From Pyrinomonadaceae bacterium (GTDB lineage Bacteria; Acidobacteriota; Blastocatellia; Pyrinomonadales; Pyrinomonadaceae), in NCBI GenBank assembly GCA_035248785.1, contig DATFHD010000100.1:328-64327 (forward strand): a stretch of DNA of 64,000 bases, given 5' to 3'. Position numbers and translations under genes: made by a program. This document shows positions 2,993 through 63,887 of the stretch, piece by piece; the stretch's first letter is position 1, and every line of letters begins with the position of its first letter. The notes under the pieces are model-generated. The model was not told the DNA's origin and made no database searches. It saw only the letters and a list, made by a program, of their open reading frames with translations.

Positions 2993-3005
2993 GACTAGGG
3001 AGTTT

Positions 3006-3074
3006 AACCGCGGAGACACGGAGACACGGCTTGAAGTCTTATGGCTTCAAGCCGTGTCTCCGTGTCTCCGCGGT
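3006..3074. terminator. Long perfect stem-loop between convergent genes; arms contain the tandem 8-mer GGAGACAC
   Basis: AACCGCGGAGACACGGAGACACGGCTTGAAG / loop / CTTCAAGCCGTGTCTCCGTGTCTCCGCGGTT. Confidence 0.8.
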
Positions 3075-3096
3075 TAATTTCGTCCCGGCAGGGCGG

Positions 3097-4525: not shown

Positions 4526-4645
4526 AAGGTTTAAGGGGTCGGCTTCCTTCTCTTTTTCAGTTTTAAGAAAGGCGTGGGACTCTCGGCCGCCGTGGCCCTG
4601 ACTTGCCCCGAATCTTACGCGCGCCGAGCGCCGAAAGCAAAGGAA

Positions 4646-4760
4646 GAGGTTGGAGGTTGGAGGTTAGAGGTTAGTGAAAGCCGCCGGCCATCGCCCGCGT
4701 TCAAAGCGGTCGGCGCGCTAACCGCGACTACTAACCTCTAACCTCCAACCTCTAACCTCT
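4646..4760. repeat. Heptad-repeat inverted repeat, GAGGTTR family, copy 1
   Basis: Left arm GAGGTTGGAGGTTGGAGGTTAGAGGTTAGTG (4646-4676), ~50-nt spacer, right arm CTACTAACCTCTAACCTCCAACCTCTAACCTCT (4728-4760). Lies in a divergent intergenic region. Confidence 0.9.
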
Positions 4761-4775
4761 GCTATCCTGCGGCGC

Positions 4776-5261
4776 ATGCTGAAGAGTCTGGCGGCGCGTC
4801 TGTGGCGGGGTGCGCCGCGGTTCGTGCGCAGGGCGGGCGTGCTTTTGACGCAGACGCGCTTCACCGTGACGGCGGGCGTCGTCGTGACGGACGAGCGCGG
4901 GCGCGTCCTTCTTCTGCGGCACGTGCTGCGCTCGGGCAGCGGGTGGGGCGTGCCCGGCGGCTTCGTCGCCGCGGGCGAGCAGCCCGAGGAGGCCGTCCGC
5001 CGAGAGGTGCAAGAGGAGACGGGGCTCGCGCTCGACGGCGTGGAACTGGCCTTCGTACGCACGCACGCGCACGTCCAACAGGTCGAGATCATCTTCCGCG
5101 GGAAGATGCGTTCGGACGCGGTCGTGAGCCTAGACAAGGGCTTCGAGATAGACCGCGCCGAGTGGTTCGCGCTCGACGCGCTGCCCGGAGGGATAGACCC
5201 CGACCAGCGACGCATCATCGCCCGCGCCCTCTCCGCCGCCCGGGCAAACGCGCCCGAGTAA
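4776..5261 (+). CDS. NUDIX hydrolase
   Basis: Nudix box GGFVAAGEQPEEAVRREVQEETGL (GX5EX7REUXEEXGU). Confidence 0.85.
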   Translation: MLKSLAARLWRGAPRFVRRAGVLLTQTRFTVTAGVVVTDERGRVLLLRHVLRSGSGWGVPGGFVAAGEQPEEAVRREVQEETGLALDGVELAFVRTHAHVQQVEIIFRGKMRSDAVVSLDKGFEIDRAEWFALDALPGGIDPDQRRIIARALSAARANAPE

Positions 5262-5281: not shown

Positions 5282-5416
5282 CAGAGGTTAGAGGCCAGAG
5301 GTTAGAGGTCAGTCGTCGCGCACCCGCGCGAGGCACGCGTCTCCGGCGCGGCTTAGCGCATGCTCCGAAGACGACATGCCACTACTAACCTCTAACCTCC
5401 AACCTCTAACCTCTAA
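5282..5416. repeat. Heptad-repeat inverted repeat, GAGGTTR family, copy 2
   Basis: CAGAGGTTAGAGGCCAGAGGTTAGAGGTCAG (5282-5312), ~70-nt spacer, CTAACCTCTAACCTCCAACCTCTAACCTCTAA (5384-5416). Confidence 0.9.
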
Positions 5417-6078: not shown

Positions 6079-6407
6079 GAAGGCAGTAGGCAGACGGTGG
6101 TAGGCGGTACATCCCCGGAGGGGATGAAGTCAATAGCCGGGGGCAGAGCGAACGAGCGAGCCGCAGGCGAACGAGTGAGCGCCGCCCCCGGAAACATGAC
6201 GAATAAACGTCCCGACCCTGAAAGGGTCGCACCGTGTGACGAGGTGTGACCCCTTCAGGGTCGGAATTATTTTGTCGCCTGTTCCGGCGGTTGCGCTCCG
6301 CCGTCTCGCCTGCGGCTTGCGGCTCGGGCTTCAACCCCCGGCTATTATGTTTATCCCCTTCGGGGATTTCCGAACTACCTACCGCCATCTGCCTACTGCC
6401 TACTTTG
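6079..6407. mobile_element. MITE-like, transposase-less derivative of the RAYT element at 42704-43414, nested inside heptad-repeat arms
   Basis: The core 6111-6367 carries the same ordered modules as the RAYT flanks: a hairpin ATCCCCGGAGGGGAT, then CAATAGCCGGGGG, CCCCGGAAAC and CCGACCCTGAAAGGGTCG, followed by their reverse complements. Outer arms are GGCAGTA/GGCGGTA heptads (6079-6110 and 6368-6407). Confidence 0.8.
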
Positions 6408-11752: not shown

Positions 11753-13879
11753 ATGAAGCGCTACGTCATCAAGCGGCCCGCGGGCTCTCAACTCCCCGAC
11801 AGGCTGGCGCGCTACCGCGAGGAGTTGAACGAGGAGCAGTTCGCCGTGGCGACGGCGCCCGCGGGTGCCGCGCTCGTCATCGCGGGCGCGGGCAGCGGGA
11901 AGACGCGTGCCATCACGTACCGCGTCGCGTACCTCGTCGAGCACGGCGTCGCGCCCGCGCGCATCATGTTGGCGACGTTCACGAACCGCGCGGCGCGCGA
12001 GATGCTGCGCCGCGTCGAGCAGTTGACGGGCGGAGGCTCGGACGTGGCGCGGCGCGTCTGGGGCGGCACCTTCCACCGCATCGCGAACCTCGTCCTGCGG
12101 CGCCACGCCGAAAGTATCGGTTACACCTCGAACTTCTCCATCCTCGACTCTGAAGACGCCAAAGACTTCATCTCCACCTGCGTTGACGAGGCCGGCGTGG
12201 ACACCAAGGCGCGTCGCTTCCCGAAGGCGGAAGTCCTGCAAGACCTCATCAGCTTCGCCACCAACACCGACACGCCCATCTCGGACGTGGTGCCGCGCCG
12301 CTACCCTTACTTCGAGCCGCTGGCGCAGCAGATCACGCGCGTTGACCGCCTCTACATGGAGCGCAAGCGCGAGCGCAACGTGATGGACTACGACGACCTG
12401 CTTCTGAACTGGAAGCGACTGCTGGAAGAGCGCGAGGAGGTGGCGCGCATCTACCGCGAGCAGTTCGAGCACGTACTCGTTGACGAGTATCAGGACACGA
12501 ACAAGCTTCAGGCGGAGATCGTTGACCTGCTCGCGTTCAAGCACCGCAACGTGATGGTCGTCGGCGACGACGCGCAGAGCATCTTCGCCTTCCGCGGCGC
12601 ATCGGTCGAAGGCATATACGAGTTCCCGAAGCGCTACCCGGAGGCGCGCGTCTTCCGGCTCGAAACCAACTACCGCTCGACGCCCGAAATCCTCGCCGTC
12701 GCCAACGTCTCCATCGCCTCGAACCGTCGGCAGTTCGCCAAGACCCTGCGCGCAGCGCGGCCGTCGCAGGGGTTACAGCCCGCGCTCGTCCCCTGCCGCG
12801 ACGCAGACCAGCAGGCGGCCTTCGTCGCGTCGCGCCTGCTCGAACTGCGCGACGAAGGCGTGGCCCTGAGCGAGGCGGCCGTGCTCTACCGTTCGCACTA
12901 CCACTCGCTCGAACTACAGCTTGAGCTGACGCGGCGCGGCATCCCTTACCGCGTGCGCTCGGGCGTGCGCTTCTTCGAGCAGGCGCACATCAAGGACGTG
13001 GTTTCGTACCTGCGCTTGGTCGCCAACCCGCGCGACGAGTTGGCGTGGAAGCGTGTCTTGCGCCTCATCCCGAACGTCGGCGCCGCGACGACCAACCGCA
13101 TCTGGGAGCGCATCGGCGTGGCCGCAGACCCTCTGGCTCTGGTCTTAAGAGGCGAGGCCGACGCCGTCGCGACGAAGCGCGGCTCGGGCTGGGCCGACTT
13201 CCGCGCGCTTCTGGAAGAACTCGTGCGCGACGAGGTGCGCACGAGCCCCGCGAGGCAGATCGAGACGGTGCTCACGCGCGGCTACGAGGACTACCTCGAA
13301 AACTCCTACGAGAACGCCGACGCGCGCCTCGAAGACCTGCGACAGCTCGCGCACTACGCCACGCGCTACACTTCGGCCGAAGAGTTTCTGGCCGAACTCT
13401 CCCTGCTCTCGACCGAGCGCTACGGAGCCCCGCAGGGCCTCACCGCCGAGGACGTAATCGAAGGCGGCGACGAAGACGAACTCATCACGCTCACCTCCGT
13501 CCACCAAGCCAAAGGTCTCGAATGGCGCGCCGTCTTCATCCTCTGGGCGGCCGACGGCAAGTTCCCCTCGCCCCGCAGCCTCCGCGACGCCGAAGGCGAA
13601 GAGGAAGAACGCCGCCTCTGGTACGTCGCCCTCACACGCGCCCAAGACCAGCTCTACATCACCTACCCCCTCATGGTCACCGACTACTCCTCCCGCCAGA
13701 CCCTCCTCCAACGCCCCTCCCGCTTCGTCACCGAAGTCCCCCCAGATTTGTATGAGATTTGGAGCCTCGAAGAAGAGACCACCACGACGCCCGCGCTCGC
13801 CGCACCCACGGCGGACGAAGAAGATGAAGGCAGCGAACCCGAACGCGGAGGCGGCGAACCGGGCGGCTATGTCAATTAA
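11753..13879 (+). CDS. UvrD/Rep/PcrA-family helicase (second paralogue in the window) with an acidic C-terminal tail
   Basis: LNEEQFAVATAPAGAALVIAGAGSGKTRAITYRVAYLV, ATFTNRAAREM, VLVDEYQDTNKLQ, TNYRSTPEIL, LTSVHQAKGLEW, YVALTRAQDQLYI. The ATG at 11753 (MKRYVIK) is preferred over the track start at 11624, which would overlap the Uma2 gene. Confidence 0.9.
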   Translation: MKRYVIKRPAGSQLPDRLARYREELNEEQFAVATAPAGAALVIAGAGSGKTRAITYRVAYLVEHGVAPARIMLATFTNRAAREMLRRVEQLTGGGSDVARRVWGGTFHRIANLVLRRHAESIGYTSNFSILDSEDAKDFISTCVDEAGVDTKARRFPKAEVLQDLISFATNTDTPISDVVPRRYPYFEPLAQQITRVDRLYMERKRERNVMDYDDLLLNWKRLLEEREEVARIYREQFEHVLVDEYQDTNKLQAEIVDLLAFKHRNVMVVGDDAQSIFAFRGASVEGIYEFPKRYPEARVFRLETNYRSTPEILAVANVSIASNRRQFAKTLRAARPSQGLQPALVPCRDADQQAAFVASRLLELRDEGVALSEAAVLYRSHYHSLELQLELTRRGIPYRVRSGVRFFEQAHIKDVVSYLRLVANPRDELAWKRVLRLIPNVGAATTNRIWERIGVAADPLALVLRGEADAVATKRGSGWADFRALLEELVRDEVRTSPARQIETVLTRGYEDYLENSYENADARLEDLRQLAHYATRYTSAEEFLAELSLLSTERYGAPQGLTAEDVIEGGDEDELITLTSVHQAKGLEWRAVFILWAADGKFPSPRSLRDAEGEEEERRLWYVALTRAQDQLYITYPLMVTDYSSRQTLLQRPSRFVTEVPPDLYEIWSLEEETTTTPALAAPTADEEDEGSEPERGGGEPGGYVN

Positions 13880-13899
13880 GACTTTCGGAGCTAACCGCG

Positions 13900-14976
13900 A
13901 TGGCTAATCCCGAACATCTTGAGATTCTGAGCCAAGGGGTAGAGGCGTGGAACAAGTGGAGAGATGAGCACCAAGACGTTCGTCCAGACCTCAGCGGTGC
14001 AGACCTCGGCGACGCAGACCTAACATTCGCCAACCTCAGCCGCTCAAACCTGAGCGGCGCAGACCTCAGCGATGCAGACTTCAGCTACGCAAATCTCAAC
14101 TTCTCAAACCTAAGCGGTGCAAATCTTAGAGATGCAGACCTCAGCGACGCAGACCTCAGCGGCGCAGACCTCAGCGGCGCAGAGCTAGGTAATGCAAACC
14201 TCAGGGACGCAAACCTCGGCGACGCAAACCTTAGTGATGCGAATCTCTTCAACGTAAATCTCACTAGTGTAGAACTCGACGGCGCAGACTTCACGAATGT
14301 TAGGTTGAGTTGGAGTACGTTCGCAGACAACGACCTCAGTGAAGTTAAAGGACTAGAGACGGTACAACATAGTGGCCCGTCAAGCATCGGCGTTGACACG
14401 CTCTATATATCAGGCGGGAAGATACCCGAAGCGTTCCTGCGCGGGTGCGGCCTACCCGACGATTTCATAGCCTTTATCCCTTCGCACTTCGGCGTACAGC
14501 AGGCAATACAGTTTTATTCCTGCTTCATCAGCTACAGCACGCGGGACGAGGAGTTCGCGCGGCGTCTTTACTCGCGGATGAGGGACGAGAAACTGCGCGT
14601 GTGGTTCGCGCCCGAAGACGCGCAGGGCGGAAAGAAGCTTTACGAGCAGATAGAGCGCGCGATTCAGGTTCACGACAGGCTTTTGATCGTCCTCTCCGAG
14701 CGGAGCCTGCAAAGCAAGTGGGTCATGACAGAGATTCGCAGGGCGCGCAAAGTCGAGTTGAAGGAGAACCGCCGCAAGCTCTTTCCCATTCGCCTCGTTG
14801 ACTACGAAACGCTGCAAGCGTGGGAATGCTTCGACGCGGATACGGGCGAGGATTTGGCGTCTGAGGTGCGTCAGTATTTCATCCCCGACTTCTCCAACTG
14901 GAAAGACCACGACGCTTTCGAGAAGGCGTTCGAGAGATTGCTACGCGATTTGAGGGCGGAAGAGGCCAGAGCCTGA
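13900..14976 (+). CDS. Pentapeptide-repeat protein fused to a C-terminal TIR domain
   Basis: About 23 A(D/N)LXX repeats (ADLGDADLTFANLSRSNLSGADLSDADFSYANLNF...), then FISYSTRDEEFARRLYSRMRDEKLRVWFAPEDAQGGKKLYEQIERAIQVHDRLLIVLSERSLQSKWVMTEIRRA (TIR-type motifs including S..W...E). Starts 20 nt after the helicase stop. Confidence 0.85.
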   Translation: MANPEHLEILSQGVEAWNKWRDEHQDVRPDLSGADLGDADLTFANLSRSNLSGADLSDADFSYANLNFSNLSGANLRDADLSDADLSGADLSGAELGNANLRDANLGDANLSDANLFNVNLTSVELDGADFTNVRLSWSTFADNDLSEVKGLETVQHSGPSSIGVDTLYISGGKIPEAFLRGCGLPDDFIAFIPSHFGVQQAIQFYSCFISYSTRDEEFARRLYSRMRDEKLRVWFAPEDAQGGKKLYEQIERAIQVHDRLLIVLSERSLQSKWVMTEIRRARKVELKENRRKLFPIRLVDYETLQAWECFDADTGEDLASEVRQYFIPDFSNWKDHDAFEKAFERLLRDLRAEEARA

Positions 14977-18696: not shown

Positions 18697-19407
18697 ATGG
18701 AAAAGACGGGCGAGACTGTTAACGCGGCCGAGTCGTTCGAGCAAGACCGCGCGCTCGCGGCGGAGGTGAAGCTCTACTACGACCTCTACGCGCCGGGCGC
18801 GCGGCCCGCGCCGCTGCTCCTTGCGCTGCACGGGTACGGGAGCAACAAGGCTTGGATGATGCGCGAGGCACGGCACCACGCGCCCGAAGGCTTCGCCGTC
18901 GCCGCCTTGCAGGGGCCGCACCAGCACTTGAAGGATGCGCGCGAGCCGGGCGGGCCGCTGCGCTACGGCTTCGGTTGGCTGACGAACTTCCGGCCCGAAG
19001 AGTCAATCGCGCTGCACCACGGCGCGCTGCTCGACTTAATCAACTCGCTCGTCGCGCGCGGGGTCGCGCGCCGCGAACAAATCTTCCTCATGGGCTTCTC
19101 GCAGTCGTGCGCGCTCAACTACCGCTTCGCCTTCACGCACGTGGAAGCACTGCGCGGCGTCGTAGGCATCTGCGGCGGGCTGCCCGGCGACTGGGAGACG
19201 AGCCCCGTTTACGGCCGCACGCGCGCCTCCGTCCTCCACCTCTCGGGCACGCGCGACGAGCACTACACGCCCGAGCGCGTCGCCGACTACGCCGAGCGCC
19301 TGCGCACGCGCGCCGCCGATGTCGAAACTCGCGCCTACGACGCGGGCCACGAGTTCGTCCCCGCCATGCGCGCCGACGTGCGCGCTTGGCTCGCGGCGCG
19401 GGTCTGA
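18697..19407 (+). CDS. Alpha/beta hydrolase (phospholipase/carboxylesterase family)
   Basis: LLALHGYGSN..., nucleophile elbow FLMGFSQSCA, and ...LHLSGTRDEHY...GHEF. Confidence 0.75.
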   Translation: MEKTGETVNAAESFEQDRALAAEVKLYYDLYAPGARPAPLLLALHGYGSNKAWMMREARHHAPEGFAVAALQGPHQHLKDAREPGGPLRYGFGWLTNFRPEESIALHHGALLDLINSLVARGVARREQIFLMGFSQSCALNYRFAFTHVEALRGVVGICGGLPGDWETSPVYGRTRASVLHLSGTRDEHYTPERVADYAERLRTRAADVETRAYDAGHEFVPAMRADVRAWLAARV

Positions 19408-19452
19408 TTCAGGATTCGAGATTTCAGATTTGAAATTTGAAATCCTTGAACT
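19405..19452. repeat. AT-rich heptad-repeat imperfect hairpin, GATTTSA family, copy 1
   Basis: GATTCAG GATTCGA GATTTCA GATTTGA AATTTGA AATCCTT immediately after the hydrolase stop. Confidence 0.75.
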
Positions 19453-19515
19453 CCGGCGACACTCCGCGTATCCTCCCGCACGCAACACGCCGCCGCAGGA
19501 AGGAGCAAGAGAACG

Positions 19516-26393: not shown

Positions 26394-27953
26394 TCAGACG
26401 AGCGCGGCGGCCGCGCGCAGGCGTCTGGCCGAGCGCTCGCGCCCGACGACCTCGAACACGTCGAACATCGAAGGCCCGACCGCCTGACCCGTGAGCGCCG
26501 TGCGCGAGGCGTTGATGAGCAGTCCGGCCTTGACGCCGCGCTCGTCCGCGAAGTCGCGGAGCGCTTGCTCGACCGCCTCCAACGTCCAAGGCTCGACCGC
26601 TTCAAGACGCTCGGCCAGCGCGGGCAGAAGCTCGCGTAGTGACGCGTCCTTCTTCAGGTTCTTCCTGACGGCCGCCTCGTCGAACTCGAAGTCGTCGGCG
26701 AAGTACGCGCGGCCCTGCCCCGAGAAGTCTTTGAGCGTGTAGAAGCGCTCGCGTATGAGATTGATTGTACGCGCGAACCATTCGCGCCGCTCTGCGTCGT
26801 ACTCCGCGCGCCACAGCCCGGCCGACTCGAACTCGGCGCGCACGAGCGGCAGCAACTCTTCGAGCGGCATCGTGCGGATGTACTCGGCGTTCATCCAGAT
26901 GAGCTTGTCGTCCGTCCACCGCTTCGGGTTGTTGGCGTCGAAGTTGAAGATGGCCGGGCTGCGGTGTATGCGTTCGAGCGAGAAGTTCTCAATCAGATCG
27001 CTCAGGGGAATTATCTCGCTCCCGCGCGCGTCGGCCGCTGTCTGCTCGTTGCCGTGCGTCGCGTCTTCCGCGGACTGAAGGCCGGCGGGCGACCAGCCGA
27101 GCAGCGCGAGGAAGTTGCGGAAGGCTTCGGGCAGAAAGCCTCGGTCGCGGTAGGTCGTAAGCGAGACTATCTCTCCATGAATACGCTTCGACAACTTTTT
27201 CCCGCCGGGCGCGAGTATCAGAGGCAGGTGCGCGAAGCGCGGGACGGCCGCGCCCAGAGCCTCGTAGATGAGAACCTGCTTGTGCGTGTTCGTCAGGTGG
27301 TCTTGGCCGCGTATCACGTCGGTGATGCCCATCTCGATGTCGTCCACGACGACCGAGAGGTTGTAGAGCGGCGAGAGGTCGCCCGAGCGCAGCAGCACAA
27401 GGTCTTCTATCTCGGAGTGCGCGCGCTCCTGCTCGCCGTAGACGGCGTCGGTGAAGTGCGTCTGCCCTTCGGCCGGCACCTTCAGGCGGACGGCGAAGGG
27501 CTCTCCGTCGGCGGCCCTTCGGTCGGACTCTTCGAGCGGCAGGTCGCGGAAAGGGTTGGCGCGGTGGCTGGCGCCCTCGCCCGCGGCGGCCGTGCGTGCG
27601 CGCTCGGCGATCTCCTGCTTGACGTTGGCGTCCGAGCGCTCGCCCTTCGGCGTGAAGTCGCGGTAAGCCTTGCCCTCGCGCACGAGGCGCATCGCGGCCT
27701 CGCGGTGCTTGTCGGCGTTGCGCGACTGGAAGACTATCTCCTCGTCGTAGTCGCCGATGCCGAGCCACGCGAGCCCTTCGAGGATCGAGCGCGTTGACTC
27801 TTCGGTCGAGCGTTGGAGGTCTGTGTCCTCGACGCGCAGCAGGAACTTCCCGCCCTCCTTGCGCGCGTAGAGCCAGTTGAACAGCGCCGTGCGCGCGGCG
27901 CCGATGTGCAGGTAACCCGTGGGCGAAGGTGCGAAGCGGACGCGGACAGACAT
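26394..27953 (-). CDS. gltX: Glutamate--tRNA ligase
   Basis: VRVRFAPSPTGYLHIGAARTALFNWLYARKEGGKFLLRVEDTDLQRS (HIGH motif) and KLSKR (KMSKS-type motif). Confidence 0.95.
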   Translation of the reverse strand: MSVRVRFAPSPTGYLHIGAARTALFNWLYARKEGGKFLLRVEDTDLQRSTEESTRSILEGLAWLGIGDYDEEIVFQSRNADKHREAAMRLVREGKAYRDFTPKGERSDANVKQEIAERARTAAAGEGASHRANPFRDLPLEESDRRAADGEPFAVRLKVPAEGQTHFTDAVYGEQERAHSEIEDLVLLRSGDLSPLYNLSVVVDDIEMGITDVIRGQDHLTNTHKQVLIYEALGAAVPRFAHLPLILAPGGKKLSKRIHGEIVSLTTYRDRGFLPEAFRNFLALLGWSPAGLQSAEDATHGNEQTAADARGSEIIPLSDLIENFSLERIHRSPAIFNFDANNPKRWTDDKLIWMNAEYIRTMPLEELLPLVRAEFESAGLWRAEYDAERREWFARTINLIRERFYTLKDFSGQGRAYFADDFEFDEAAVRKNLKKDASLRELLPALAERLEAVEPWTLEAVEQALRDFADERGVKAGLLINASRTALTGQAVGPSMFDVFEVVGRERSARRLRAAAALV

Positions 27954-27961
27954 GATAGGGA

Positions 27962-28040
27962 GGGATGAGGGATGAGGGATGAGGGATGAGTTAAAAGCAA
28001 CTGGTCTTTAACTCACCCCTCATCCTTCATCCCTCATCCC
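27962..28040. repeat. Heptad-repeat hairpin (GGGATGA repeats)
   Basis: GGGATGAGGGATGAGGGATGAGGGATGAGTTAAA / loop AGCAACTGGTC / TTTAACTCACCCCTCATCCTTCATCCCTCATCCC. The right arm overlaps the last codons of the DUF421 gene. Confidence 0.9.
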
Positions 28041-28633
28041 TTCTTCAAACTCCTTTTCAGTTCTTCCATCTGGCGGCAGAGTTGGTCAATGCGCGCGAGC
28101 AGTTCCTCGTGGCGGCGCTCGTCGCGCGGGGGCGTGTGGCCCTCGATGTAGAAGCTGCCGCCGGGCTCCAACACGCAGGTCTTGATGTCGCCGAGGTGGC
28201 GGAAGCCCTGCCGGTGCGCGACCGTCAGCAGTTCGCTCTTCGTCAGCATCTCGCGCGCCAGCTCCGCCTCGCAGACGTGCCCGTTCTCGATGAGCTTGCT
28301 GGGCGTGCCCTCGATGAGCTGGTCGAGGCGCCGGTGCTTGAACATGAAGCGCACGACCGTGTAGTTCACCAGCAGCAGCGCGACGGCGCCGACGAGCCCC
28401 CCGGCGAGCGAGTTGTCTTCGCCGATGATCGCGTTCTGCACCGTGTTCGAGAGCGAGAGCAGGACGACGAGGTCGAAGGGGTTGAGCTGCGCCAGCTCGC
28501 GCTTGCCGAAGACGCGCAGCAGCACGACGAGCGCGGCGTAGACGACGACGGGGCGCAGAACCTTCTCGGCCAGCGGGAGCGCGGGCGCCGAGAGAAGGTT
28601 CTGAAGCGTCCCGTCCCAAAGGAGTCCGGACAT
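28034..28633 (-). CDS. DUF421 (YetF-like) membrane protein
   Basis: LRVFGKRELAQLNPFDLVVLLSLSNTVQNAIIGEDNSLAGGLVG...LIENGHV...ELAREMLTKSELLTVAHRQGF. Confidence 0.8.
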   Translation of the reverse strand: MSGLLWDGTLQNLLSAPALPLAEKVLRPVVVYAALVVLLRVFGKRELAQLNPFDLVVLLSLSNTVQNAIIGEDNSLAGGLVGAVALLLVNYTVVRFMFKHRRLDQLIEGTPSKLIENGHVCEAELAREMLTKSELLTVAHRQGFRHLGDIKTCVLEPGGSFYIEGHTPPRDERRHEELLARIDQLCRQMEELKRSLKKG

Positions 28634-28682
28634 CTTGCGCTTCTCCTCGCGGGCGGGTTTAGAAAGAGCAGGGCGGCCGCGT

Positions 28683-28723
28683 AAAACAAATGAAGGTTAC
28701 CTGAACTTTGCGACAGGTAACCT
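28683..28723 (-). terminator. Intrinsic terminator downstream of tRNA-Ser(GCU)
   Basis: On the minus strand AGGTTACCTG-TCGCAAAGTT-CAGGTAACCT is followed by TCATTTGTTTTA. Confidence 0.65.
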
Positions 28724-28739
28724 GCGTGGGCGATGTTGA

Positions 28740-28830
28740 TGGCGGAGATGGCAGGATTCGAACCTGCGATAGGCTTTTGACCTATAACGGTTTAGCAAAC
28801 CGCCGCCTTCAGCCACTCGGCCACATCTCC
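28740..28830 (-). tRNA. tRNA-Ser (anticodon GCU)
   Basis: Hand-folded: GGAGATG TG GCC GAGTGGCTGAA GGC G GCGGT TTGCTAA ACCGT, a long variable arm TATAGGTCAAAAGCCTATC, GCAGG TTCGAAT CCTGC CATCTCC G CCA. The CCA is encoded. Confidence 0.9.
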
Positions 28831-28988
28831 GCGAAGGCGAAGCCCTATTCTAGCCCGCGACCACCGATTGTCAAGCCGCGCCCCGGCCGTTTCCGCCCCG
28901 CGAAAACTTACGTATAACCCCGGCGCGGTTTGGTGATAAAGTTTGCGCGCACGGCCTCGGATTCCGCTTTGACAGGAGACGGCCTCAC

Positions 28989-31900
28989 ATGCCCGAAGCT
29001 TCCAGTAAACAGACCGTCGTCATGGTCAGCAGCACCGTGCTCGATCTGCCCGAGCACCGCAAAGAGGTGCGCGACGCCTGCCTGCGGATGGGGATGCTCC
29101 CCGTGATGATGGAGCACCTGACGGCCGGCGATACGGACGCGGCCGAGAAGTCGCTGGCGATGGTTGACGGCGCGGACATCTATCTGGGCGTCTTCGCCTA
29201 CCGCTACGGTTACGTGCCCGACGCGAACAACCCCGACCGAATCTCCATCACCGAGATGGAATACAACCGCGCCGTCGAGCGCGACATACCCCGCCTGATC
29301 TTCTTCATGGACAAGTCGCACACGCTCACTGCGGCCGACATGGAAGAGGACACGACCGACCCGGTCGAAATCGCGCGGCGTAAGGTGAAGCTGGCGGAGT
29401 TGAAAGAGCGCGCCGGCAAAAGGCGCGTCGTCGCCTCCTTCAGGTCGCCCGCCGACCTGCGCGCGCTCGTCATACAAGCCCTCGTCGAATTCCGCGTGCC
29501 AGACCTCACGACCTTCCACTACGTCAGCAACATCCCCGAGCCACCCGAGCCCTTCATCGCGCACCCCTACACGCTGCTGCAAACGCACCGCCTCGTCGGC
29601 CGTCAGCCAGAACTGAATCTGTTAACCGACTGGGTCGCCAAACCCGACTCTGGCGTTTACAAGGCGCGCATCCTCAACGTCGTCGCCATCGGCGGCATGG
29701 GCAAGAGCGCCCTGACGTGGAAGTGGTTCAACGACATCGCCCCGCAGGAGATGAAGCCGCTCGCCGGACGCATGTGGTGGAGCTTCTACGAGTCCGACGC
29801 CACCTTCGAGAACTTCGTCACCCGCGCCCTCGCCTACGTCACCCGCCGCCCTCTCGCCGAAGTCCAACAAATCCCCGCCCCCGACCGCGAGACGCAACTC
29901 CTCGCCGCCCTCGACCGCGAGCCCTTCCTCCTCGTCCTCGACGGCCTCGAACGCATCCTCATCGCCTACGCCCGCATGGACGCCGCGCATCTCAGCGACG
30001 ACGACTACGACAGGCAGACGGCGAACTTCGTCGCCAACGCCTACGGCCTGCCCGCGAGCGCCGCGCAGTCCTTCACCGGCGAGCACCGCCTACGCAAGAC
30101 CGCCGACCCGCGCGCCGGCTCCTTCCTCCGCAAACTCTCGAACGTCCGCGCCTCCCGCATCCTAGTCAGCACACGCCTCTACCCAGCCGACTTACAGACG
30201 GTGACGGGCGAATCGCTTGGCAATTGTGCCGCTGTCTTCCTGCCCGGGCTGTCCGATGACGACGCGCTCGAACTGTGGCGGGCGTTTGGTGTCACCGGCT
30301 CACGCGATACGTTGCTGCCGCTTTTCAATCTCGTCGGTAATCATCCTTTACTGGTCCAAGCGTTGGCGGGCGAGGTGGCGCGCTACCGGCCCGCGCCCGG
30401 CGACTTCGACGCGTGGCGGCGCGCTCATCCCGATTTTAACCCCTTCGGCCTGCCGCTCATTCAAGTAAGATCACACGTGCTGGCCTCTGCCCTGCACGGG
30501 CTCGGCGGCAAAGCGCACCAAGTGTTGCGCACCATCGCCGCCTTCAGGATGCCCGCACGCTACGACACGCTGGTCGCGTTGTTAATAGGTAACGGGAAGG
30601 CGTGCGCAGACGAGCGTGAGTTGGACGGGGTTCTAACCGAGTTGGAAGACCGGGGCTTGGTCGGCTGGGACAAGCGCGCCAACCGCTACGACCTGCACCC
30701 GCTCGTGCGCGGCGTGGTGTGGAGCGGCCTGAGCGACGACGCCCGGCGCGGCATCTATACGAGCCTGCACACACACTTTGAAGTGGTGCCGAAGATTGAC
30801 GATTTTCTCAAAGTCAATAACCTCGAAGACCTCACACCCGCTATCGAGCTATACAATACGCTGATTGGTTTGGGACGTTACTCCGACGCCGCGCTTCTTT
30901 TCCAAGGGAAATTAGACCAAGCCACGATTTGGCGCCTGAGCGCCAACCGCCAGCGGATAGAGTTGCTCGAAATGCTCTTCCCCGATGGATTAGAGCACCA
31001 GCCGCGGTTGAACCGCGGTGGGTTGCAAGCCTACGCGTACGGTGCGTTGGCAACCAGCTATACGTCGAGCGGACAACCTGGACGCGCCGCGGCCGTGCAC
31101 CGCCGCGCCAATGCTATTGACGCCGAGATCGGGCGGAGCATCAGCCTATGTACGGGACTGTATAACATGTCGTATGCCCTACGCTTGTCAGGCGCCCTGC
31201 GGGAGGCAGAATCTACTGCGCGGCAGGCGCTGATTATTTCGCGTGAGCAGGGTGATGTCGGTAGAGAAGCCAGCAGCCTCTACATGCTCGGGCTGGTGTT
31301 CGCCGCTCGCGGCATCTCTAAAGGGTCTGAGGCGGCGCTCAGTCGGGCGTTGAGGATATTCGTGACCTACTCCTTCAAACCAGGGATGGGATTTGTAAGC
31401 TCTTTCCTTTCACAAAGGGCATTATGGCTCGGAGCTTACATCGCTGCGATGACACTCGCCGACCGCGCTTGGGAACTGGCTCATGTCAGAGGCAATGAGC
31501 GTGATTTCATCTTCGCTTCACGGCGGCAGGGTGAGGCGGCGCTGGGCTTAAACGACTTAGTTAAAGCAGACGAGCGGCTGCATCATGCGCTCACCCGCGC
31601 GCGGATGGTGAATCTAGTTGAGGAAGAACTGCCCGCGCTGGTGGCGCTGGCGGAGTTGCGGCGGAGGCAGGGGGAGTTGGGGGCGGCGAGGGGGTTGTTA
31701 GAGGATGTGTGGGAGGCGGCGGAGCGGGGGCCGTATCCTTTGATTCATGCGGATGCGTGTTGTGTGTTGGCGGAGGTGGAGCGGGAGGAGGGCCGATACG
31801 ATAAAGCGGTTGAGCCGGCGGAGACGGCTTATAGGTTGGCGTGGTGTGATGGGCCGCCGTTTGCTTATCATTGGGGGTTGGAGAGGGCGCGGGCTCTGCT

Positions 31901-32928: not shown

Positions 32929-32930
32929 CA

Positions 32931-33001
32931 GAAACAATGAACGATGAACGATGAACGATGAACTGAAGGCATGAAGCTTTCAGTTCATCATTCATTGTTT
33001 C
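32931..33001. repeat. Heptad-repeat hairpin (GAACGAT repeats) between convergent genes
   Basis: GAAACAATGAACGATGAACGATGAACGATGAACTGAA / loop / TTCAGTTCATCATTCATTGTTTC. The left arm has two more heptads than the right. Confidence 0.9.
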
Positions 33002-41881: not shown

Positions 41882-41913
41882 CCTACTGCTTTTCCCCGCG
41901 GCAAGTCAAGATT

Positions 41914-42023
41914 TAGAGGTTAGAGGTTGGAGGTTAGAGGTTAGTGGTCGCCGGGTGCGGAGGTCTAAACCTGCCGCCGCCGGTTGCCTTTACCAACCTC
42001 CAACCTCTAACCTCTAACCTCTA
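41914..42023. repeat. Heptad-repeat inverted repeat, GAGGTTR family, copy 3
   Basis: TAGAGGTTAGAGGTTGGAGGTTAGAGGTTAGTGG / ~45-nt spacer / CCAACCTCCAACCTCTAACCTCTAACCTCTA. The right arm ends at the ATG of the next gene. Confidence 0.9.
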
Positions 42024-42703: not shown

Positions 42704-43414
42704 TGTCCCCGAAGGGGACACAGACAATAGCCGGGGGTAGAGCGAAGACGCGAAGCGTCTGAGCGCCACCCCCGGAAACGTCGCAACATACATCCGACCC
42801 TGAAAGGGTCGAACCGTCAGCGCCACAAGTATTCCTCTTCGTATTTAACCCCGTACCTCTTCAACAGCGACAGCATCTCCGACTCGAACGTGCGCCGGCG
42901 GTGGTGCTCCCCCTGCCGCGCGATGTAACCCTTCAATGCCTCAACGTTCGACTCCCCGATAGAGAAAGCGCCGTAGCCGTCCTGCCAGCCGAAATCTCTG
43001 AAACGCGCGCCATTCGTCTTAACCCACCTCGACGAACTCCGCTTCAAATCGCCGACGACTTCGCTGAGTGCGAAGTTCTTCGACAGCGAGACGAGCAGAT
43101 GTACGTGGTTGGCAGTGCCGCCGACGGCGAGGCAGCGTGATTCGTGATTGTTGAGGATGCCCGAGAGGTATGCGAAAAGGTCGGGTTCCAACTCGGGCGT
43201 GATGAGGTCGGCGCGATCCTTCGTCGAGAAGACGACGTGAACGAGGAGGCTGACGAGCGTCTGTGACACGTTGGGCTCCTTCCGTCACGACGGTGCGACC
43301 CTTTCAGGGTCGGGACATTTTACCGTCTTAACCCGGGGGCGGCGCTCGCCGTTCGCCTTCGGCTCACGGTTCGCTCTGCCCCCGGCTATTGTCTGCGTCC
43401 CCTTCAGGGACGGG
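42704..43414. mobile_element. RAYT unit: Y1 transposase gene framed by inverted, hairpin-rich REP-like modules
   Basis: The left flank runs TGTCCCCGAAGGGGACA, CAATAGCCGGGGG, CCCCGGAAAC, CCGACCCTGAAAGGGTCG. The right flank is the reverse-complement order: CGACCCTTTCAGGGTCGG, CCCGGGGG, CCCCCGGCTATT, CGTCCCCTTCAGGGACG. Confidence 0.8.
42817..43269 (-). CDS. IS200-like Y1 (HUH) transposase, REP-associated tyrosine transposase type
   Basis: LLVHVVFSTKDR, HUH motif ANHVHLLVS, GWQDGYGAFS and the catalytic-Tyr helix KGYIARQGEHH. Confidence 0.85.
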   Translation of the reverse strand: MSQTLVSLLVHVVFSTKDRADLITPELEPDLFAYLSGILNNHESRCLAVGGTANHVHLLVSLSKNFALSEVVGDLKRSSSRWVKTNGARFRDFGWQDGYGAFSIGESNVEALKGYIARQGEHHRRRTFESEMLSLLKRYGVKYEEEYLWR

Positions 43415-48520: not shown

Positions 48521-48529
48521 GGGGAAGAA

Positions 48530-48664
48530 GTAGACAGTAGTCAGTAGTCAGTAGACAGTAGAAAGACAGGCGGCGCGGCCTTCATTATCGGTTGATGATG
48601 AAGGCCGCGCCGCCCTTCTTCTTCGCTTCTTCCTACTGACTACTGACTACTGACTACTGTCTAC
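48530..48664. repeat. Nested heptad-repeat hairpin (CAGTAGT/CAGTAGA repeats) enclosing a second GC-rich hairpin
   Basis: The outer 25-bp perfect stem is GTAGACAGTAGTCAGTAGTCAGTAG / CTACTGACTACTGACTACTGTCTAC. The inner 17-bp stem is GGCGGCGCGGCCTTCAT / ATGAAGGCCGCGCCGCC. Lies between convergent genes. Confidence 0.9.
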
Positions 48665-48668
48665 TCCC

Positions 48669-57616: not shown

Positions 57617-57660
57617 GTGGATTCAGAAGCTCAAATCTGAAATTTCAAATCTTCAATTCT
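57617..57660. repeat. AT-rich heptad-repeat imperfect hairpin, GATTTSA family, copy 2 (opposite orientation to copy 1)
   Basis: GATTCAG AAGCTCA AATCTGA AATTTCA AATCTTC AATTCTT. Its reverse complement contains GATTTGAAATTTCAGATTTGA, compared with GATTTCAGATTTGAAATTTGA at 19405-19452. Confidence 0.7.
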
Positions 57661-63483: not shown

Positions 63484-63571
63484 AGCTGTTGGCTGTTAGC
63501 TGTTGGCTGTTGGCTGTTGGCTGTTGGCCGTGAGCTGAAAGCCAACAGCCAACAGCCAACAGCTAACAGCT
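63484..63571. repeat. Heptad-repeat hairpin (GGCTGTT repeats)
   Basis: AGCTGTTGGCTGTTAGCTGTTGGCTGTTGGCTGTTGGCTGTTGGC / loop CGTGAGCTGAAA / GCCAACAGCCAACAGCCAACAGCTAACAGCT. The left arm is two heptads longer. Confidence 0.9.
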
Positions 63572-63887
63572 ACTCATTCGTCCTGCCCGGCCAGAAGGCG
63601 TGGAGCCAGCGGCTGGCCGAACTCTCCTGACTGATGATGTGTTCGAGCTCGCCCGCGTCGAGCCAGATGCCGCCGCAGGTGTCGCAGCGGTTGATGCTCA
63701 CCTCGTCGTAAGAGTCCTCGTGGAGCTTGCCCGTGCAGCGCGGGCAGGGCATCGTGACGGGGCCGAGGTCGCGCGTGCGCGCGTCCTCGCGTATGGCCTC
63801 GCGCAGGCGTTCCAGCGACTCCTTGTCGCGGCGGCGGAAGTACTCCTCTTCGAGCCCGCGGCGGCGTTCGTCGAAAATGTCTGACAC
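63570..63887 (-). CDS. Zinc-ribbon (zf-TFIIB-like) domain protein
   Basis: CPRCTGKL...INRCDTCGGIWLDAGELEHI. Confidence 0.75.
   Translation of the reverse strand: MSDIFDERRRGLEEEYFRRRDKESLERLREAIREDARTRDLGPVTMPCPRCTGKLHEDSYDEVSINRCDTCGGIWLDAGELEHIISQESSASRWLHAFWPGRTNE

Follow-up and report, generated by a model that had tools for sequence, protein, structure and literature searches.

Hairpins with arms of tandem heptamers across Pyrinomonadaceae genomes: a diverse variant of known bacterial heptamer repeats that may close transcribed gene units

Introduction

Repeats with a 7-nt unit are over-represented in bacteria, the short tandemly repeated repetitive (STRR) heptamers of Calothrix among them (Mrazek 2007 and Mazel 1990, as cited in PMC4692102), and polymerase slippage was proposed for the 7-nt preference in earlier work that the same paper cites. 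The closest described systems are the GGGAATC heptamers of Xanthomonas and the GGGGAYT heptamers of Nostoc, where most arrays hold four units (Rehm et al. 2015, PMC4692102). Each Xanthomonas genome carries 70-75 inverted pairs that converge and could fold into stem-loops; the G-rich array is found downstream of genes on the coding strand, is depleted between divergent genes, and is transcribed (PMC4692102). The positions of these repeats are conserved, and their sequence and length vary between close species (PMC4692102). Here, we analyze hairpins whose arms are tandem heptamers in a 64,000-nt stretch of DNA (hereafter, the window) from a Pyrinomonadaceae bacterium (GenBank assembly GCA_035248785.1, contig DATFHD010000100.1, positions 328 to 64,327), starting from a GGGATGA hairpin next to gltX, referred to below as the named hairpin.

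The hairpins share with the Xanthomonas and Nostoc repeats an intergenic location, a four-unit mode, inverted pairing, purine-first arms, and depletion between divergent genes. That study described one G-rich unit per genus and read it through G-quadruplexes, whereas we find ~66 units, most of them quadruplex-incapable, with 85% of arrays paired. Concerted and compensatory evolution, abutment of stop codons, and family turnover are documented here in addition, and the phylum is a different one, Acidobacteriota. Cyanobacterial STRRs and the (GATAGRA)n repeats of Chloroflexus, noted by Subirana and Messeguer 2019 (PMC6749651), likewise have intergenic 7-nt units with several units per genome, but they are mainly direct tandem arrays, often longer, and the hairpin does not define them as it does here. 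The TAACTGA repeats of Beggiatoaceae, cyanobacteria, and Bacteroidetes (MacGregor 2015, PMC4679880) are also intergenic heptamers, present in 2-6 copies a few nucleotides from start codons, with three-frame stops noted and a patchy phylogenetic distribution. They differ in comprising a single unit in direct orientation (169 sets versus 1 inverted), so that no hairpin forms, and a site for a single-strand RNA-binding protein was proposed (PMC4679880).

Repetitive extragenic palindromic (REP) sequences, together with bacterial interspersed mosaic elements (BIMEs) and the inverted REP doublets called REPINs, are the nearest palindromic relatives. As described in PMC3116915 and PMC3733652, these short intergenic palindromes sit at operon junctions and 3′ ends with several families per genome, and the inverted doublets form long hairpins whose presence varies between strains. 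Roles in mRNA stabilization, termination, and supercoiling have been proposed for them. REP units are there imperfect palindromes of 20-40 nt with conserved sequence, a GTAG/CGTC tag, and a link to REP-associated tyrosine transposases (RAYTs) (Bertels & Rainey 2011, PMC3116915; Di Nocera 2013, PMC3733652). The heptamer hairpins instead consist of tandem 7-nt arrays and show no RAYT link in ~11 kb per genome. Membership in the REP/REPIN class was rejected: there is no GTAG/CGTC tag and no fixed or conserved full-length consensus, and what copies share is units and sometimes stem ends. A stable stem-loop directly after a gene or between cistrons also recalls Rho-independent terminators and phage T7-type RNase III hairpins, and at the tRNA-Ser junction described below, a T tract follows as in a terminator. 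Stems here measure 25-38 bp, are periodic and of moderate GC content, and usually have no T tract, whereas terminator stems are GC-rich and 5-14 bp long.

The initial annotation of the window was not aware of a description of this class. Descriptions exist: the inverted GGGAATC pairs of Xanthomonas, the cyanobacterial STRRs, and the Beggiatoaceae TAACTGA repeats precede them (PMC4692102, PMC4679880), and the hairpins are a far more diverse variant of known but unexplained heptamer repeats rather than a new class. For Blastocatellia or Acidobacteria, we found no description of heptamer hairpins in the literature. We see about an even chance that a composite explanation holds, in which these palindromes would act mainly as transcribed stems that close gene units.

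Results and Discussion

Period-7 arms dominate the long hairpins of the family

The window contains 11 period-7 runs of at least three copies, whereas a first-order Markov model predicts 0.15 (maximum of 2 per simulation, 60 simulations). Nearly all of these runs have their reverse complement as a partner. The same criterion returned no period-8 run and a single period-9 run. For comparison, we assembled 80 gltX loci from species-representative genomes and 80 from metagenomes, which with the window total 1.75 Mb, or ~11 kb around gltX for each relative; these collected loci carry L-numbers below. The closest relatives of the window's gltX (70-80% amino acid identity) are in metagenome-assembled genomes labeled Pyrinomonadaceae (Acidobacteriota, Blastocatellia). 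An ungapped census of inverted repeats (arms of at least 21 nt, complementarity of at least 85%) yielded 309 across this set, 162 of which have period-7 arms. Period 8 accounts for nine, and any other period for at most one; with the gltX site excluded, the period-7 share is 80 of 206. The proposal in the initial annotation that a 7-nt periodicity is conserved across different sequences is thus borne out as a property of the whole family, across ~66 distinct units on 5′ arms, and the predicted excess of period-7 arms over other periods was recovered.

The set contains 354 period-7 arrays, or ~200 per Mb, with a copy number sharply peaked at 4.0-4.5. A complementary partner lies within 260 nt of 301 arrays (85%), compared with 7 of 400 random control segments, and for 302 of the 354, less than 50% of the array overlaps a called gene. 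Of 103 pairs, 50 have arms with the same number of units, and in another 43 the arms are one unit apart. Arms are mostly 25-35 bp, with a GC content of 47% in genomes of ~64%; loops usually span 10-30 nt, reaching 150 nt when they enclose other hairpins or dispersed elements. The excess of tandem heptamers over other periods, their noncoding location, and their four-unit inverted pairing place them with heptameric simple-sequence repeats of the STRR/Xanthomonas type. Given this census, the heptamer hairpin is the dominant long stem-loop type in these genomes rather than a curiosity of the window, and its layout is shown to extend throughout the Pyrinomonadaceae family and to many uncultured contigs of other origin.

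The window derives from a short-read metagenome assembly, which could invite an explanation by chance or assembly artifact. We regard this as next to impossible. The count of 11 runs against 0.15 speaks against it, as does the same architecture at orthologous positions in ~150 independent assemblies, including multi-megabase contigs and OY970256.1, titled a complete chromosome; the period-7 excess and its recurrence in independent assemblies refute the idea.

A variable hairpin at a conserved tRNA-Ser/gltX junction

The named hairpin, read on the plus strand, begins with a 5′ arm at 27961-27995, of which 33 of 35 nt are paired and which consists of (GGGATGA)x4.4 followed by the non-repeat stem GTTAAA. 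An 11-nt loop (27996-28006) separates it from the 3′ arm (28007-28041), which carries the complement array (TCATCCY)x4.3. Tandem Repeats Finder reports the locus as (GAGGGAT)4.4 at 27960-27990, with 100% matches, and (CTCATCC)4.3 at 28012-28041. On the minus strand, the order is a promoter-like site, tRNA-Ser(GCU), a DUF421 gene, the hairpin, and gltX. The last of these (26394-27953; glutamyl/glutaminyl-tRNA synthetase [GluRS] family, Pfam tRNA-synt_1c and Anticodon_2) has its ATG 7-8 nt beyond the hairpin. The DUF421 gene (28034-28633) ends within the hairpin, its last codons and stop codon (28034-28036) being inside the plus-strand 3′ arm. All loci had been described as intergenic, which is right except that arms may overlap gene ends, as this stop codon does and as the ATG at 42023 touches another arm.

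The tRNA gene (28740-28830, minus strand) is preceded by a sigma-70-like promoter, TTGACA-16-TAGAAT, with 11/12 matches (28847-28874, minus strand); positions 27700 to 29000 yielded no other promoter-like site. With one such site before the tRNA and none found between it and gltX, the two genes may be co-transcribed in the window. tRNA-Ser(GCU) and gltX are same-strand neighbors throughout the family, some lineages having the DUF421 gene between them; most relatives lack this gene and have the tRNA immediately before the hairpin and gltX.

Among the 155 loci with enough upstream sequence, an inverted repeat occupies this junction in 127 and is clearly of period 7 in 103, ending a median of 7 nt before the ATG. 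The unit varies by lineage (CAGTRGT, GAACGNN, CAGAGGT, GTGACRA, GTGATRA, RGGATGA, CCGTGAA, or AAAGGCA). A T tract follows the hairpin in 45 of 102 loci with a tRNA upstream versus 0 of 18 with a protein gene upstream. This tie to the tRNA neighbor is as expected if the hairpin ends the tRNA transcript there and otherwise lies within an operon. A consensus scan for Rho-independent terminators returned nothing at the named locus.

The closeness to the gltX start in most of these loci, the alleles with three arms that permit alternative pairings, and the lack of a visible separate promoter between tRNA and gltX could together suggest a dedicated cis-regulator of gltX, either a leader attenuator or a translational operator, with the remaining loci as unrelated look-alikes. 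We consider this very unlikely. The same architecture and unit families flank unrelated genes (NUDIX, kinase, cytochrome c, dehydrogenase, and others), for which reason a gltX-specific riboregulator was rejected. Pairing is the sole feature conserved in sequence, and a scan of the whole window at Rfam 15 gathering thresholds matched only the two tRNA-Ser genes and no heptamer hairpin. In the three-arm alleles, moreover, the third arm lies downstream of the T tract and therefore cannot serve as an antiterminator.

Units change together and arms remain complementary

Comparison of close relatives revealed how the arms evolve. In locus L082, GluRS is 94% identical to that of the window and the DUF421-side coding DNA ~95% identical, compared with only ~71% for the hairpin. 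Its unit is GTGAYGA in place of GGGATGA, and the same unit position differs in all eight units: at position 2, the four left units have G in the window but T in L082, and the four right units have C versus A. Unit number is the same and the loop similar. The same kind of coordinated change distinguishes L112 from L116 (coding DNA ~95% identical), and between L104 and L106 (98.7% identical), one arm differs by two units. Since all units of one hairpin change together, these alignments show concerted evolution, with units homogenized within a hairpin and unit number varying between close strains. Homogenization is probably by slippage, concerted change and unit-number variation being a signature of slippage or of unequal exchange between units. 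Slippage had been suspected from unequal arms in the window, and the inequality holds at two loci, with 6.3 versus 4.4 units at 63485 and 4.4 versus ~2 at 32931. The strain differences, including the anticipated repeat-number variation between related strains, and the joint change of units agree with that suspicion.

Alongside this homogenization, pairing persists. In an alignment of 11 DUF421-linked hairpins (A4), 93.5% of cells are paired and 22 of 32 pairs have changed on both sides. Double-change cells number 54 against 16.6 ± 3.4 after shuffling, none of 500 shuffles being as high, and the covarying columns recur at period 7. The CAGTRGT family (A1) gives a similar picture: 92.7% of its cells are paired, double changes affect 10 pairs, and none of 500 shuffles reaches this. 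The alignments show arms kept complementary by changes on both sides recurring every 7 columns. Either selection for pairing or templated correction within the palindrome would restore complementarity in this way; the data fit both. Units also form mutational series, such as NNGAYGA and CAGTAGT-CAGTGGT-CAGAGGT-TAGAGGT.

Unit families disperse and replace one another

Unit families such as GAACGNN, CAGTRGT, GTGACRA, and CAGAGGT reappear at unrelated loci and across genomes, and some same-family copies share non-repeat ends, e.g., GAAAC...GATGAACTGAAAG. Placed on a rough neighbor-joining tree of GluRS, the families at the gltX junction are dispersed and change in 101 of 157 adjacent steps, so that their vertical inheritance along this tree is not supported. 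Elsewhere, orthologous spacers contain different palindromic families (heptamer, 8-mer with TTAACC ends, or non-periodic CAGAACCGCGAGCGGTAGCGAGCGGGT) or none, often nested in one another's loops. What emerges from these comparisons, and is shown by them at the level of sequence, is a limited set of unit families that recur at unrelated loci and replace one another at orthologous spacers. The initial description of a different, unrelated sequence at each locus is thereby corrected: a limited number of families recurs across loci and genomes, forming the mutational series noted above. That the loci are not copies of one known REP/BIME family holds true, although a REP-like turnover between loci is seen.

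Two other palindromic families share these spacers. The 8-nt family RCACRGAG / GGAGACAC has TTAACC...GGTTAA termini and is found in L010, L016, L023, L044, L046, L089, L144, and others, sometimes inside other hairpins; it is a better candidate for a miniature inverted-repeat transposable element (MITE) than the heptamer families. The non-periodic palindromes CAGAACCGCGAGCGGTAGCGAGCGGGT...ACCCGCTCGCTACCGCTCGCGGTTCTG occur in L023, L030, and L092, in spacers orthologous to window positions 32929-32999 and 19408-19515. Spacers with this palindrome hold heptamer hairpins in other genomes, and other elements are often nested in its loop. Work by Elhai in 2008 reportedly described small elements nested in heptamer arrays of Nostoc, resembling the nesting seen here.

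To look beyond the family, we drew 118 stretches of putative viral contigs (GC 0.4-0.7) from IMG/VR by two exact-pattern scans. Because these stretches were picked for holding one array, they are informative only for polarity and for the co-occurrence of other units. They contain 421 period-7 runs versus 140, 90, 24, and 14 for periods 5, 6, 8, and 9, and 82 period-7 hairpins with 37 units, purine-first in 77 and the reverse in 2. In five of them (L180, L196, L198, L213, and L252; GC 0.60-0.71), heptamer hairpins are numerous and each contig has several units, and L196 also has an 8-nt version, (GGGCAGTA)5. In L180, L213, and L198, a whole element including its loop is repeated upstream of successive genes. 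BLAST searches of phage and plasmid collections with a heptamer-rich contig and with a heptamer array returned nothing, for the pure repeat probably owing to low-complexity filtering.

Dispersal of this kind raises the possibility of selfish REP/REPIN- or MITE-like palindromes without host function, copied by a hairpin-recognizing enzyme (a tyrosine [HUH] transposase of the RAYT type or of the TIRYT type, associated with terminal inverted repeats [TIRs]) or by ectopic gene conversion. Periodicity would then be a by-product of slippage, and copies would persist at harmless sites after stop codons or in the loops of older hairpins. Such an origin would account for the unit families and common ends at unrelated loci, the family changes on the gltX tree, the nested and exchanged palindromes of orthologous spacers, the IMG/VR elements repeated with their loops, and the dispersed element that fills the loop of the composite hairpin at 6079-6407. 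The near equality of G:U-type and A:C-type mismatches reported below also suits it, and TIR-associated tyrosine transposases have been reported in Acidobacteria (PMC3733652). Nevertheless, we think it rather doubtful, though a real possibility. At the element borders examined, neither target-site duplications nor conserved termini were found for the heptamer families, loops of same-family copies in the window are unrelated, and no transposase is linked in the ~11 kb of DNA examined per genome. The missing target-site duplication and the unconserved internal sequences and loops led us to reject the MITE class. The near-universal occupancy of the gltX junction by different families, with a T tract only after the tRNA, looks required by the site, and mobility alone leaves purine-first polarity and a four-unit mode over ~66 units unexplained.

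Placement, polarity, and the level of action

With genes called by our own codon-bias procedure, period-7 hairpins begin a median of 3 nt from the neighboring stop codon, 70% of them within 10 nt, compared with 34 nt for non-periodic hairpins; the corresponding medians to the start codon are 17 and 142 nt. They fill a median of 79% of their spacer versus 17% for non-periodic hairpins. Tandem contexts account for 51, convergent ones for 20, and divergent ones for 7, where the baseline numbers 766, 206, and 215, so heptamer hairpins are under-represented between divergent genes. Whichever strand is read, purines prevail in the 5′ arm, with more G than C in 180 of 191 hairpins (the reverse in 10; mean GC skew, +0.46) and more A than T in 139 versus 47. 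Non-periodic intergenic hairpins display the same purine-first bias more weakly. Outside the gltX site, T tracts, defined as at least five T in 8 nt, follow 4 of 51 tandem and 4 of 40 convergent flanks (8 of 91 in total). The hairpins do not have the short GC-rich stem, 3-8-nt loop, and U tract of intrinsic terminators, the exception as to the tract being the tRNA-linked gltX hairpins (45 of 102); with arms of 25-38 bp, they are more than ordinary terminators, as the initial annotation held.

Sense-strand mismatches of the G:U and A:C types number 25 and 22 in one alignment, 21 and 28 in another, 26 and 27 in tandem contexts, and 78 and 57 at the gltX site. This symmetry is compatible with transcript action on both strands, with a DNA-level process, or with plain young mutations. 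Action as DNA could take the form of cruciforms, of G-quadruplexes where units are G-rich, or of periodic sites for nucleoid proteins, topoisomerases, or other proteins, as BIMEs bind gyrase and integration host factor. The strand symmetry agrees with this, and arms of 47% GC in ~64% GC genomes would favor local opening. Three heptamers make 21 bp, or two turns of B-DNA, which also counts in its favor. At the named locus, (GGGATGA)4 is a canonical G3N4 quadruplex motif like the GGGAATC of Xanthomonas, whose quadruplex formation was shown in vitro (PMC4692102). We nonetheless judge a DNA-level element quite unlikely. Most units (AGTAGTC, ACGAGTG, AACGATG, AGGTTTC, and others) lack a G3 tract, yet the four-unit mode is unchanged, so the G-quadruplex cannot be the general principle; as a class, it was rejected because units such as GGGATGA or AAGGGGW alone provide at least four G3+ tracts with short loops between them, while AGAGGTC and most others fail. 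The four-unit, purine-first inverted architecture is independent of G-quadruplex potential. For a sequence-specific protein, ~66 units leave no common motif, and the closeness to stop codons together with the context-dependent T tract points to the transcript level.

A transcribed stem closing the gene unit

In the composite explanation that we favor, a transcribed stem of ~30 bp directly after the stop codon would close the transcription and translation unit from either direction. It could act as a largely T-tract-independent terminator or insulator, and also as a hairpin that protects the 3′ end or is processed by an RNase III-type enzyme, with read-through expected at operon junctions, tRNA-Ser/DUF421-gltX among them. 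First to emerge would be the purine-rich 5′ arm, which is C-poor and rich in the letters of stop codons. We propose that its scarcity of C makes it a poor Rho loading site. Over the pyrimidine-rich 3′ arm, the RNA:DNA hybrid would be of the weak pyrimidine-RNA type; hybrids with pyrimidine RNA belong to the thermodynamically weaker class. Purine-first polarity fits a transcript role through both the C-poor first arm and the weak hybrid over the second. The context-dependent T tract, the depletion between divergent genes, and the position of the 19405 hairpin between a stop codon and a conserved promoter point in the same direction.

Several observations weigh against such a role. T tracts are rare outside the tRNA context. 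Many hairpins lie 0-17 nt ahead of a start codon, too close to fit a promoter, and efficient termination at such sites would silence the downstream gene. The nearly equal mismatch types provide no strand-specific RNA signature, and covariation in the GAACGNN alignment (A2) is weaker, only marginal. Stop codons in all three frames are found in 70 of 191 5′ arms versus 32 of 191 3′ arms, but they do not suffice as a reason for the units, with 99 observed at the level of units against 91.8 ± 5.9 in composition-matched shuffles. Finally, selfish spread would account equally well for families that turn over regardless of the gltX tree and for the copying of whole elements in some contigs.

A broader version would unite heptamer-armed, purine-first palindromes of ~4 x 7 nt per arm from Acidobacteriota, Xanthomonas, cyanobacteria, and many uncultured bacteria or phages in one widespread class. 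Such palindromes would be built and kept up by a dedicated mechanism, e.g., synthesis templated by the hairpin or an enzyme specific to hairpins that advances in 7-nt steps, and would act as bidirectional, U-tract-independent terminators or processing sites. This generalization is speculative, and we rate it as unlikely.

Other hairpins in the window

Folded as RNA, each of eight window loci reaches -33 to -102 kcal/mol (z = -6.6 to -16), and none of 200 shuffles is equally stable. Ungapped inverted-repeat detection gives arms of 19-38 nt that are 87-100% complementary, and Tandem Repeats Finder recovers paired period-7 arrays at 4646/4731, 5282/5385, 41913/41995, 48529/48633, and 63485/63540. 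The genes flanking the heptamer hairpins are unrelated in function (NUDIX, phosphoribosyltransferase, kinase, cytochrome c, dehydrogenases, and others). The coordinates and units first assigned to the loci were reproduced, except that 6079-6110 and 6368-6407, listed as two loci, are the arms of one 330-nt composite hairpin.

Three hairpins sit between convergent genes. The GAACGAT hairpin (32931-33001) separates metallophosphoesterase and SpoIIE-type phosphatase genes; its 5′ arm has about two extra units, and a single period-7 array is reported at 32933-32963. The CAGTAGW hairpin (48529-48665) has 38-nt arms around a GC-rich inner hairpin at 48569-48614. In the composite hairpin (6079-6407), degenerate GGCAGTA arms enclose a 257-nt insert, and the region folds at -231 kcal/mol. 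The insert includes a dispersed ~105-nt element (6131-6235) that is 86% identical to 43290-43391 and also occurs in L030 at 13694-13912. The GGCTGTT hairpin (63485-63572), of 6.3 versus 4.4 units, occupies the entire spacer between two minus-strand genes.

The GAGGTTR unit forms hairpins at 4645-4760, in a divergent spacer 15 nt upstream of the start of a NUDIX gene; at 5283-5416, between the NUDIX and phosphoribosyltransferase genes; and at 41913-42023, in a divergent spacer where the arm ends at the ATG of a hydrolase gene. These copies had been placed in promoter regions: two of the three do occupy divergent spacers, at 5-15 nt from the start codon, and a promoter role is at most putative. 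The 3′ arm of the 5283-5416 hairpin is identical over 34 nt to 4727-4760. The resulting direct repeats (4727-4760 and 5381-5414) flank the NUDIX hydrolase gene (4776-5261) and could, from their arrangement, mediate its loss or duplication.

The GATTTSA hairpins are present as described but short and weak. One (19405-19452; -23 kcal/mol) lies directly after a stop codon and directly before a promoter-like TTGAAC...TATCCT; the other, GATTTSA-type (57617-57660; -13 kcal/mol), is in a 36-nt spacer between two minus-strand genes. The promoter-like CTTGAAC-N17-GTATCCT/GTATGCT is conserved at ~19450-19490 and in orthologous spacers, directly downstream of a variable palindrome site, and the palindromic elements placed there after the upstream stop codon differ among relatives. 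The hairpin built on an 8-mer (GGAGACAC; 3004-3077), first reported as a version of the heptamer layout, is real but belongs to the separate dispersed palindromic family with TTAACC termini that recurs in relatives. Tandem Repeats Finder lists its arrays at 3011/3052, and it folds at -68 to -73 kcal/mol, a value obtained without shuffle control. Two repeat-containing protein genes are also encoded on the plus strand of the window, one with collagen-like triple-helix repeats (1469-2992; Pfam Collagen) and one with a 15-nt periodicity of the pentapeptide-repeat type (13900-14976).

Significance

Heptameric repeats have been known since 1990 and their over-representation since 2007, and the sole detailed study invoked G-quadruplexes for the four-unit preference. 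With dozens of quadruplex-incapable units sharing the same architecture in this family, that explanation is not general. The tRNA-Ser/gltX junction constitutes a natural experiment, in which one conserved site carries many heptamer hairpins under concerted and compensatory evolution. It makes it possible to test what sets the unit at 7 nt and the copy number at four, whether the hairpins act as DNA or as RNA, and whether they are selfish or functional. Should they prove to be terminators or processing sites, gene finding and operon prediction would gain in Acidobacteriota, a dominant but little-studied soil phylum. A single widespread class, if it were true, would represent a new general way of ending genes in compact GC-rich genomes.

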